Positions 42,651-52,185 of a stretch of DNA of 64,000 nt are shown one piece after another; the first letter of the stretch is position 1; each line of letters starts with the position of its first letter. Position numbers and translations under genes: made by a program. Source of the DNA: Escherichia coli (GTDB taxonomy: Bacteria > Pseudomonadota > Gammaproteobacteria > Enterobacterales > Enterobacteriaceae). Below the pieces are notes generated by a model. It was not told the origin of the DNA, ran no database searches, and saw only the letters and a list, made by a program, of their open reading frames with translations. Where the stretch lies: the NCBI RefSeq assembly GCF_003334255.1, contig NZ_QOWU01000003.1; one strand, given 5' to 3'.

Positions 42651-43628
42651 ATGCTTTTAGCTACGGCACTGTTAATTGTTGGTTTACTTTTGGTCGTTTA
42701 CAGTGCCGACCGCCTGGTTTTTGCCGCGTCTATTCTTTGCCGAACCTTTGGCATCCCGCCGCTGATCATCGGCATGACGGTGGTCAGTATTGGTACATCG
42801 TTACCAGAAGTCATCGTCTCGCTTGCCGCGTCTCTGCACGAACAACGCGATTTAGCCGTTGGTACAGCCCTCGGCTCAAACATTATCAATATATTGCTGA
42901 TCCTCGGTCTGGCTGCGCTGGTTCGTCCTTTTACCGTCCATTCTGATGTTCTACGCCGTGAATTACCCTTAATGTTGTTGGTCAGCGTGGTGGCCGGTTC
43001 CGTACTCTATGACGGACAACTTAGTCGCAGCGATGGTATCTTTCTCCTCTTTCTGGCTGTGCTATGGCTGCTGTTCATTGTTAAACTTGCACGTCAGGCT
43101 GAACGTCAGGGGACTGACAGCCTGACCAGAGAGCAGCTTGCAGAGCTGCCGCGTGACGGCGGATTGCCCGTCGCGTTTTTATGGCTCGGCATTGCGCTTA
43201 TCATCATGCCAGTGGCCACGCGGATGGTGGTTGATAACGCCACGGTGCTGGCGAATTACTTTGCCATCAGCGAGTTGACGATGGGTCTGACGGCAATTGC
43301 TATCGGAACCAGCCTGCCGGAACTGGCAACCGCAATAGCGGGGGTTCGCAAAGGTGAAAACGACATTGCTGTCGGAAATATCATTGGCGCAAACATTTTT
43401 AATATTGTCATCGTGTTGGGTTTACCCGCGCTGATAACGCCAGGAGAGATTGATCCACTGGCGTACAGTCGTGACTACAGCGTGATGTTGCTGGTGAGCA
43501 TTATTTTTGCGTTGCTGTGCTGGCGGCGCTCCCCGCAACCGGGCCGTGGTGTAGGGGGATTATTAACTGGCGGATTTATCGTATGGCTGGCGATGTTGTA
43601 CTGGTTATCGCCAATACTCGTTGAATAA
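42651..43628 (+). CDS. yrbG: CaCA-family Na+/Ca2+ exchanger-like inner-membrane protein, 325 aa
   Basis: ORF track; duplicated alpha-repeat motifs GTSLPE...GSNIINIL and GTSLPELATA...GANIFNIV. Confidence 0.88.
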   Translation: MLLATALLIVGLLLVVYSADRLVFAASILCRTFGIPPLIIGMTVVSIGTSLPEVIVSLAASLHEQRDLAVGTALGSNIINILLILGLAALVRPFTVHSDVLRRELPLMLLVSVVAGSVLYDGQLSRSDGIFLLFLAVLWLLFIVKLARQAERQGTDSLTREQLAELPRDGGLPVAFLWLGIALIIMPVATRMVVDNATVLANYFAISELTMGLTAIAIGTSLPELATAIAGVRKGENDIAVGNIIGANIFNIVIVLGLPALITPGEIDPLAYSRDYSVMLLVSIIFALLCWRRSPQPGRGVGGLLTGGFIVWLAMLYWLSPILVE

Positions 43629-49490: not shown

Positions 49491-50345
49491 ATGGTACTGA
49501 TGATCGTCAGCGGACGTTCAGGTTCAGGTAAATCTGTCGCCCTGCGTGCGCTGGAAGATATGGGTTTTTACTGCGTGGATAACCTTCCCGTAGTGTTGTT
49601 ACCCGATCTGGCTCGAACCCTGGCCGATCGCGAGATTTCTGCCGCCGTCAGCATTGATGTTCGTAATATGCCGGAGTCACCAGAAATATTCGAACAGGCG
49701 ATGAGTAACCTGCCTGACGCTTTCTCACCGCAACTCCTGTTCCTGGATGCCGACCGTAATACCTTAATTCGTCGTTACAGTGACACGCGCCGACTGCATC
49801 CGCTTTCCAGCAAAAACCTGTCGCTGGAAAGTGCTATCGACAAAGAAAGCGATTTGCTGGAGCCTCTGCGTTCGCGAGCGGATCTGATTGTCGATACCTC
49901 AGAAATGTCCGTTCACGAGCTGGCTGAAATGCTGCGTACCCGTCTGCTGGGTAAACGTGAACGCGAACTGACCATGGTCTTTGAGTCTTTCGGCTTCAAA
50001 CACGGTATCCCTATCGATGCAGATTACGTCTTTGACGTGCGCTTCTTGCCGAACCCGCACTGGGATCCGAAACTGCGTCCAATGACAGGTCTTGATAAAC
50101 CTGTCGCCGCGTTCCTCGACCGCCACACAGAAGTACACAATTTTATCTACCAGACGCGAAGCTATCTTGAGCTATGGTTACCTATGCTGGAAACCAACAA
50201 CCGTAGCTACTTGACGGTCGCCATTGGTTGTACCGGCGGGAAGCACCGTTCGGTGTATATTGCAGAGCAACTGGCAGACTACTTCCGCTCGCGCGGTAAA
50301 AACGTCCAGTCACGCCATCGTACGCTGGAAAAACGTAAACCATGA
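49491..50345 (+). CDS. rapZ: RNase adapter protein RapZ (YhbJ), 284 aa
   Basis: ORF track; Walker A GRSGSGKS. Confidence 0.93.
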
Positions 50346-50614
50346 CCGTCAAGCAAACTGTTGAAATCACAAACAAGCTGGGCATGCATGCCCGGCCTGC
50401 AATGAAGCTGTTTGAATTAATGCAGGGTTTTGACGCTGAAGTGCTCTTACGTAATGACGAAGGCACCGAGGCTGAAGCCAACAGCGTTATTGCGCTGCTG
50501 ATGTTGGATTCTGCCAAAGGACGGCAGATTGAAGTTGAAGCGACCGGTCCACAGGAAGAGGAAGCACTGGCCGCCGTTATCGCCCTCTTTAATTCTGGTT
50601 TTGATGAAGATTAA
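50342..50614 (+). CDS. npr: Nitrogen-PTS phosphocarrier NPr (PtsO), 90 aa
   Basis: ORF track; HPr-like GMHARPA active-site His; ATGA overlap with the rapZ stop. Confidence 0.93.
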
Positions 50615-50760
50615 TCTTCATCACTTTGACATACAACTCCCTTCAAACTCCCCCCGACAATAAGAAAATCACGTACTGAAATCGTTCTCAATCAACGTCA
50701 TTTGTACATTTTGTGCGCTTTTCACTTTCAGAAGAACCTTAAGAAAACCTTAAGAGGCAT

Positions 50761-50779
50761 TGTTTAGGTTTTGTTTAAG
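50761..50779 (+). promoter_or_regulatory. PhoP-box-like direct repeat upstream of yrbL
   Basis: TGTTTAggtttTGTTTAag matches (T)GTTTA-N5-(T)GTTTA, about 50 bp upstream of the yrbL ATG. Confidence 0.6.
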
Positions 50780-50827
50780 TTAATCGACCATACTGGAGAT
50801 CGTCAGAAAATATTTCCAGGAGATGGC

Positions 50828-51460
50828 ATGATTCGCTTATCTGAACAAAGTCCCCTGGGCACCGGAAGACATCGGAAATGTTATGCGCATCCGGAAGATG
50901 CCCAACGCTGTATCAAGATTGTCTACCATCGTGGCGATGGTGGCGATAAAGAGATCCGCCGTGAGTTAAAGTACTACGCGCATCTTGGTCGCCGGTTAAA
51001 AGACTGGAGTGGAATACCGCGCTATCACGGTACCGTTGAGACGGATTGCGGAACCGGTTATGTCTACGATGTGATTGCAGATTTTGACGGCAAGCCTTCC
51101 ATTACGCTGACCGAATTTGCTGAACAATGCCGTTACGAAGAAGACATTGCACAACTGCGCCAGCTACTGAAACAGCTGAAGCGTTATTTGCAGGATAACC
51201 GTATCGTGACGATGTCGCTGAAGCCGCAGAATATCCTCTGTCACCGCATCAGTGAGTCAGAGGTTATCCCGGTCGTCTGCGACAACATTGGTGAAAGCAC
51301 ATTGATTCCACTGGCGACCTGGTCGAAGTGGTGTTGTCTGCGTAAGCAAGAGCGGTTATGGAAACGATTTATCGCCCAACCGGCGCTGGCTATTGCCCTG
51401 CAGAAAGATCTGCAACCTCGTGAGAGCAAAACGCTGGCCCTCACTTCGCGCGAAGCTTAA
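50828..51460 (+). CDS. yrbL: PhoP-regulated protein YrbL (kinase-like fold), 210 aa
   Basis: ORF track 50771..51460; start trimmed to [24 protein letters not shown]. Confidence 0.82.
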
Positions 51461-52185
51461 TCCAGCTGGTGTTGTTGCATAAACGGCTCACCGCCTAACT
51501 GATACATCTGCCGTAAAATCCACGCCTGACGGCTACGCACGTAGCCCGATGGCGAGGAGACTTTGAAACGAAGTGGATTAGGTAATACAGCTGCCAGTAA
51601 TGCAGCTTCCGACCGGGTAAGTTTGCTCGCGGGTTTGTGGAAATAACGTTGTGCCGCAGCTTCGACGCCAAACACACCGTCGCCAAATTCGGCGATATTC
51701 AGGTAAACCGTCAGGATACGCTTTTTGCTCCAGACCGTTTCTATCCCCAGCGTTAATCCGGCTTCCAGCCCTTTTCGAACCCAGCTACGCCCATCCCATA
51801 AAAAGAGATTTTTGGCTGTCTGTTGAGAAATCGTTGAAGCACCGCGAATACGGTTTTCATTGCGCTCGTTGTGCGCCAGGGCTTTCTCAATGGAAGCGAC
51901 ATCAAAGCCCCAGTGCTCAGGAAATTTCTGATCTTCTGCGGCAATCACCGCCAGTCCCATCCACGGCGAGATTTGATCCATACTGACCCAGTCAGAATGT
52001 GCCACGTAACGAAAATTGCCATGCAGCCAGGCGCTGACCTGTCGCTCGACCATTACCGCTGAGAAGGGAACAGGCGCAACGCTAAACAACGCGATGCCCC
52101 CGCCCCAGAAAACGGCGAGGACAACCATTAACCGCAAAAGAAAACGGCGAACGAAACTAAACACCGTTAAGCGGCTTTTACTCAT
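51457..52185 (-). CDS. mtgA: Monofunctional peptidoglycan glycosyltransferase MtgA, 242 aa
   Basis: ORF track; GT51 motifs AAEDQKF and [12 protein letters not shown]. Confidence 0.93.

Follow-up and report, generated by a model that had tools for sequence, protein, structure and literature searches.

A PhoP box and a neighbouring PmrA box in the yrbL promoter of Escherichia coli

The yrbL locus

The 64-kb stretch of Escherichia coli DNA analysed here (the window) carries, in order, lptB, rpoN, hpf, ptsN, rapZ, npr (+) and yrbL (+), followed by mtgA, elbB and arcB (-). Positions 50000-51460 are base-for-base identical to E. coli K-12 MG1655, and window coordinates convert to those of NC_000913.3 by adding 3,297,624. 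RefSeq names the product of yrbL "PhoP regulatory network protein YrbL", and from its ATG the protein aligns over residues 1-210 of 210 with the NCBIfam equivalog of the same name, NF007671 (E = 5e-120). On the strength of this full-length alignment, with which RefSeq agrees, we took the ATG at 50828-50830 as the start codon and rejected a TTG at 50771, which comes from an open reading frame lister that takes the first possible start. The features that we recognised between the end of npr and the end of yrbL are collected in Table 1.

Table 1. Features of the npr-yrbL intergenic region and of yrbL, in window coordinates.
Feature	Coordinates	Strand	Basis
9-bp A/U-rich hairpin spanning the npr stop codon, then CUUUG	50602-50623	+	RNA fold of 50600-50770
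Conserved 23-bp block ATTTGTACATTTTGTGCGCTTTT	50700-50722	.	19 of 23 columns invariant in 12 relatives
PmrA/BasR box CTTAAG-AAAAC-CTTAAG (CTTAAGaaaacCTTAAG)	50738-50754	+	Sole exact match in the window; reported repressor site
PhoP box TGTTTA-GGTTT-TGTTTA (TGTTTAggtttTGTTTA, TGTTTAGGTTTTGTTTA)	50761-50777	+	Unique exact consensus match, top weight-matrix score, conservation, published site
Degenerate -35 position TAGGTT	50765-50770	+	Inside the PhoP box; read from the sequence; same in PMC3335776 Table 2
-10 hexamer CATACT	50789-50794	+	Invariant in 12 of 12 close relatives; yrbL -10 in PMC3335776 Table 2
Inferred transcription start region	50796-50802	+	Homology to the S1-mapped Salmonella start, via alignment
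Shine-Dalgarno sequence AGGAG	50818-50822	+	5 nt before the ATG; read from the sequence; conserved in the promoter alignment
yrbL coding sequence, 210 aa plus stop	50828-51460	+	NCBIfam NF007671, RefSeq annotation

In three of the loci searched, YrbL homologues of about 50% identity lie directly after dnaE, in the company of a Kdo kinase (PF06293), glycosyltransferases, a Wzy_C ligase-like gene and a second set of YrbL-family copies. Such surroundings are reminiscent of a locus for LPS/LOS core biosynthesis and, taken with faint matches to protein-kinase Pfam families, hint that the YrbL family could consist of sugar or lipid kinases acting on the envelope. A 420-bp contig labelled Tannerella forsythia ATCC 43037 (NZ_JUET01000135.1) encodes YrbL residues 1-129 with 99% identity to the E. 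coli protein, which almost certainly reflects contamination of that assembly with E. coli DNA. The gene is also reported to carry the consensus elemental pause sequence used as a single-molecule and structural model of RNA polymerase pausing (PMC11260103).

A perfect PhoP box upstream of yrbL

An initial annotation, made from the sequence, had described two hexamers in direct repeat with a 5-nt spacer about 50 bp upstream of the yrbL ATG. We found this repeat exactly as described: the hexamers TGTTTA occupy 50761-50766 and 50772-50777 on the plus strand, the spacer is GGTTT, and 50 nt separate the end of the repeat from the ATG at 50828. The range assigned to the feature, 50761-50828, does contain the box and runs on to the start codon, whereas the repeat alone covers 50761-50777. 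The repeat starts 147 nt downstream of the TAA that ends npr (50612-50614).

On both strands of the window this is the sole exact match to TGTTTA-N5-TGTTTA. Only 0.02 matches per window are expected by chance, and 2 of 100 dinucleotide-preserving shuffles contained one. With the degenerate consensus KGTTTA-N5-KGTTTA, a direct repeat of (T/G)GTTTA with a 5-nt spacer, the same position is again the only match with 0 mismatches in the 64 kb. The initial annotation had proposed a PhoP weight-matrix scan as a check. Our scan used a matrix of 19 columns built from 25 activating, footprinted Salmonella boxes (PMC3335776 Table 1), with yrbL left out. Among about 128,000 positions in the whole window, 50760-50778 ranked first at 23.0 bits, above every box on which the matrix was trained (highest 19.4). 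The maxima of 100 first-order Markov windows averaged 15.3 bits, the largest being 19.5, so that 0 of 100 reached the score of the yrbL site.

Two further matches followed in score. One, CTGTTGAGAAATCGTTGAA at 51820-51838 (+) with 18.0 bits, resembles the ompX box and lies within mtgA, on the antisense strand; the other, CTGTTAATTGTTGGTTTAC at 42669-42687 (+) with 16.6 bits, falls where the yrbG coding sequence begins. We rejected the two, their scores being within the range of the random windows.

Anatomy of the yrbL promoter

The box stands in direct orientation, with 11 nt (50778-50788) between it and the -10 hexamer. The hexamer at the -35 position matches TTGACA at 2 of 6 positions and is separated from the -10 by 18 nt. 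The promoter therefore combines a single direct-orientation box, placed at the 11-12 nt before the -10 that is typical of such boxes, with a poor -35 that the box overlaps. This bears out the proposal that the repeat is an activator site overlapping a -35 position, and it agrees with the published sites in PMC3335776 and PMC5775216. A scan for consensus sigma-70 promoters found no self-sufficient promoter in 50300-51600, as expected if the promoter depends on an activator. All the sequence features of an architecture I PhoP box are present, namely the repeat, its spacer, its orientation, the distance to the -10, the poor -35 and, as described below, conservation.

Homology to the Salmonella start (32-nt leader, 2 nt after the -10) would put the E. 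coli yrbL start at about 50797, whereas the usual -10/+1 spacing of 6-8 nt, if it applies, would put it at 50800-50802. A start 2 nt after the -10 is unusual, so that either the -10 assignment or the start site in Salmonella is imprecise. An Rfam search of 50300-51600 at E <= 1 returned one meaningless snoRNA match and no known RNA element. Two methylation sites lie in this part of the region. A Dam site (GATC, 50798-50801) falls at the presumed start and is not kept in other species, and a Dcm site (CCAGG, 50816-50820) overlaps the Shine-Dalgarno region. In a preprint, yrbL is among the five genes most significantly increased on deletion of dcm (PMC11741368).

PhoP regulation of yrbL

We have very little doubt that the repeat is the PhoP box of the E. 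coli K-12 yrbL promoter, at MG1655 3348385-3348401, and none of our results speaks against this. The site is already known and published, so that the reading made from the sequence was right and is not new. In Salmonella, where the PhoP-box submotifs were redefined from a DNase I footprinting analysis of a promoter set, yrbL has a single orthologous box, TCGTTTAGGTTTTGTTTAA, in direct orientation and 11 nt upstream of a -10 CATACT; the table entries for this promoter give TAGGTT as the -35, a spacer of 18 and a 32-nt leader (PMC3335776, Zwir et al. 2012). The E. coli box is thus the orthologue of the Salmonella box and not merely similar to it. S1 mapping in wild-type and phoP strains at 10 uM and 10 mM Mg2+ revealed one yrbL start site, active in the wild type at 10 uM Mg2+ and inactive in the phoP mutant (PMC3335776). 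In Shigella flexneri, a yrbL promoter fragment with an identical box, tTGTTTAggtttTGTTTAa, is shifted by PhoP-P in EMSA, and deletion of phoPQ reduces yrbL mRNA to 0.02 of wild type, a loss of about 50-fold (PMC5775216).

Other work describes the response of the gene. After induction in Salmonella, transcription of yrbL precedes that of all other PhoP targets, and its expression is the lowest among them (PMC4196223). Optogenetic control of PhoP elicits a response from an E. coli yrbL reporter, whose sensitivity to the PhoP level is low (PMC13215669), and E. coli studies have used yrbL as a member or reporter of the PhoP regulon (PMC2789325, PMC5740661, PMC13215669). The primary E. coli papers are Minagawa 2003 and Zwir 2005, as represented in the papers that cite them.

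The sequence and this literature fit a simple mechanism. PhoQ would sense low Mg2+, cationic peptides, acid pH or osmotic upshift and phosphorylate PhoP, and a dimer of PhoP-P would bind both TGTTTA hexamers head-to-tail. Because the position that the box occupies, 11 nt before CATACT, has TAGGTT in place of a usable -35, bound PhoP would substitute for -35 recognition and recruit RNA polymerase as a class II activator, with transcription beginning some 30 nt before the ATG. Salmonella yrbL has been assigned to architecture I and predicted to be class II since its box overlaps the -35, and independence of the alpha-CTD was demonstrated for mgtA only (PMC3335776). A class II contact is thus demonstrated for mgtA and predicted for yrbL.

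As a textbook ancestral member of the PhoP regulon, yrbL serves as a reference promoter in studies of PhoP architecture and dynamics. Its box is useful mainly as a positive control, being a real regulatory site recognised from sequence alone. What we add here is the PmrA box, a conserved upstream block, a survey of alleles and the conservation of the layout across several enterobacterial genera.

A PmrA/BasR box beside the PhoP box

The consensus of the PmrA/BasR box is a direct repeat of YTTAAK with a 5-nt spacer. Such a repeat, unique in the window as an exact match (at <=1 mismatch, 0.11 are expected), ends 6 nt upstream of the PhoP box, so that the two boxes start 23 bp apart. It is embedded in a longer repeat, two copies of AACCTTAAGA spanning 50735-50755. 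The initial annotation had mentioned neither this box nor the conserved block at 50700-50722; with the PmrA box that it missed, PhoP is therefore not the sole input.

According to statements in PMC3335776, PMC4196223 and PMC2681069, all of which cite Zwir 2005, PmrA binds to the yrbL promoter of E. coli and acts as its repressor, and the same papers give PmrA repression of yrbL in Salmonella as a prediction. A recent transcriptome of iron-adapted E. coli B is consistent with PmrA repression of yrbL: wherever basR, eptA and arn go up, yrbL ranks with the genes that fall most sharply (PMC13405929). We conclude that two inputs converge on the yrbL promoter, activation by PhoP and repression by PmrA. 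PmrA-P, activated by Fe3+ or Al3+ and in Salmonella by PhoP via PmrD, would damp the promoter from its box 6 nt further upstream. Given the 6-bp gap between the boxes, exclusion of PhoP and interference with polymerase contacts are the obvious candidate mechanisms.

A rival reading is that the downstream repeat itself serves mainly another regulator of the OmpR/PhoB family, such as PmrA/BasR or RstA, with PhoP acting indirectly. Read with a shift of 2 nt, the PhoP box becomes TTTAGG-N5-TTTAAG, which fits the relaxed PmrA pattern YTTARK-N5-YTTARD, so that PmrA might also touch it, and 8 of 12 positions at 50765-50778 match an RstA consensus. These relaxed matches are weak, however: 253 window positions score as well for RstA, and a perfect PmrA box already lies 23 nt upstream, where the literature places it (about 24 bp from the PhoP box in yrbL; PMC2681069). 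PhoP-P, moreover, shifts a fragment with the identical box in vitro (PMC5775216). We consider it very improbable that the repeat serves chiefly such a regulator, and retain PhoP as the protein that acts there.

Conservation and variation of the control region

We footprinted the region in 12 promoters from Escherichia (coli, albertii, whittamii and others), Citrobacter and Salmonella arizonae. Mean identity to the window base was 0.89 for the 17-mer of the PhoP box, 1.00 for CATACT and 0.94 for the PmrA repeat (50735-50755); it was 0.48 from the npr stop codon to 50699, and the two short gaps that separate the conserved blocks had 0.40 and 0.38. The box, the -10 and their spacing are thus conserved across Escherichia, Citrobacter and Salmonella, whereas the intervening DNA is not, and conservation of the PmrA box equals or exceeds that of the PhoP box.

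More distant yrbL orthologues were found by protein search and by look-ups of exact proteins. In 13 promoters of Escherichia, Citrobacter and Salmonella (S. enterica included), a recognisable box lies at -67 to -71 relative to the ATG and is followed by CATACT; the same holds for Siccibacter, Superficieibacter and 'Erwinia sp. CPCC', where the offset of CATACT is unchanged. Enterobacter hormaechei has a non-syntenic yrbL copy without npr upstream, with the box TGTTTAATGTCCATTTA at -67 and with CATAAT instead of CATACT. With a relaxed pattern, 17 of 19 enterobacterial yrbL promoters have the box at -67 to -71.

Within E. coli, the intergenic region is present in all 5,426 of 5,426 complete genomes, and the 61-nt core (50735-50795) is found at >=99% in 3,130 of them. 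In the divergent classes that we sampled, a common allele has CGTTTA as its second hexamer (TGTTTAGGTTTCGTTTA or TGTTTAGATTTCGTTTA), sometimes with a G-to-A change in the spacer, and leaves the PmrA box and the -10 unchanged; CGTTTA falls inside the published range (C/T/G)GTTTA (PMC3335776). This allele is probably why about 2,000 of the 5,426 genomes miss the K-12 61-mer. Because it is common, the perfect repeat is a K-12-type, lineage-specific allele of a slightly degenerate site. In one clinical strain, E. coli Ecol_AZ161 (NZ_CP019012.1), an IS66-family element is inserted directly after the CATAC of the -10; the PhoP and PmrA boxes are kept, separated from yrbL by the insertion.

Independence from the rpoN operon

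The initial annotation had also argued, from the position of the site just downstream of the end of the rpoN-hpf-ptsN-rapZ-npr operon, that yrbL is regulated independently of it. The conclusion is plausible, in view of the PhoP-dependent start; the argument from position is weak, as the npr stop codon is marked by a weak hairpin only. This hairpin (50602-50623), whose sequence is kept in Escherichia, has a 3-U tail and might at best act as a weak terminator of the operon. A terminator scan did not call it and found no intrinsic terminator between npr and yrbL. Some read-through from npr into yrbL is therefore possible, there being no stronger terminator than this hairpin. Nevertheless, yrbL is probably regulated independently of the rpoN operon, because the Salmonella start depends on PhoP and because the layout of the control region is similar at the E. 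hormaechei copy that lacks npr.

The same evidence leaves next to no credence for the view that T-rich intergenic DNA produced the repeat by chance and that yrbL is expressed mainly by read-through from the rpoN operon: the want of a strong terminator would allow it, but the match frequency and matrix scores given above, the conservation of box, spacing and -10 amid DNA that is not conserved, the similar box and layout at a copy without npr, and the single PhoP-dependent start site mapped in Salmonella (PMC3335776) all contradict it.

A conserved block further upstream

A third element, the block at 50700-50722 (MG1655 3348324-3348346), equals the PhoP and PmrA boxes in conservation among the 12 Escherichia, Citrobacter and Salmonella promoters. 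It keeps a constant distance of 22 nt to the PmrA box, which lies downstream, and is at about -97 to -75 from the start site. Its core, GTAC(A/G)-N4-GTGC, is kept in Superficieibacter, in Pluralibacter and at the non-syntenic E. hormaechei copy, and Siccibacter has CTACA.

We compared the block with 16 transcription-factor consensus sequences, including Fur, RstA, OmpR, sigma-54, marbox, CpxR, PhoB, ArcA, RcsB, an MlrA half-site, NtrC, EvgA, CRP and FNR. With the exception of the MlrA half-site, none matched the block better than it matched hundreds of other window positions, and the MlrA half-site, at 9 of 11 positions, was rejected as its second half is missing. Readings other than a factor-binding site gained no clear support. 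In the promoter alignments, a sigma-70 promoter on either strand would have no conserved partner hexamers, a mini-ORF is not conserved and a GUAC/GUGC hairpin shows no covariation; as a sigma-54 promoter (TTGTAC-N5-GTGC), the block has TG in place of the essential GG. The Rfam search of 50300-51600 gave no family match for the block.

Tentatively, we suggest that the PhoP box belongs, as one module, to a rigid control region shared by several enterobacterial genera and that the distal block serves a regulator that has yet to be linked with yrbL, a combined reading that we hold to be possible rather than probable. Fur is one candidate for that regulator, though the block is unlike a Fur box: Fur has been reported by ChIP-seq to bind upstream of yrbL and to repress it (PMC4676285), and a comparison with the Fur consensus found no convincing Fur box in the npr-yrbL intergenic region. 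If the block does bind a further regulator, yrbL would have a three-input promoter.

Comparison with known promoters

The closest relative of this promoter is its Salmonella enterica counterpart, also of architecture I. The two have in common a single direct box, 11 nt from box to CATACT, TAGGTT at the -35, an 18-nt spacer between these hexamers and GGTTT between the halves of the box, as well as a PmrA box some 23-24 bp upstream. They differ in the first hexamer, which is CGTTTA in Salmonella and TGTTTA in K-12, and in the leader, which is 1 nt longer in Salmonella; in the S. enterica and S. arizonae loci that we compared, the core of the second hexamer is ATTTA.

With the class II, architecture I promoters mgtA, phoP and slyB, yrbL shares the (T/G)GTTTA-N5-(T/G)GTTTA repeat that replaces a poor -35 about one helical turn before the -10. 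In yrbL 11 nt lie between the box and the -10, against 12 nt in mgtA, phoP and slyB. Unlike these three, yrbL also carries a PmrA repressor box, and in this it is like pmrD.

The pmrD promoter, a 'bi-fan' motif, combines an activating PhoP box at the -35 with a repressing PmrA box upstream, as yrbL does. The two boxes are about 38 bp apart in pmrD and about 23-24 bp apart in yrbL (PMC2681069), and the product of yrbL, in contrast to that of pmrD, has no known role in the PhoP-PmrA circuit. Likewise activated by PhoP and repressed by PmrA, the pmrD promoter is the nearest functional analogue of the yrbL promoter.
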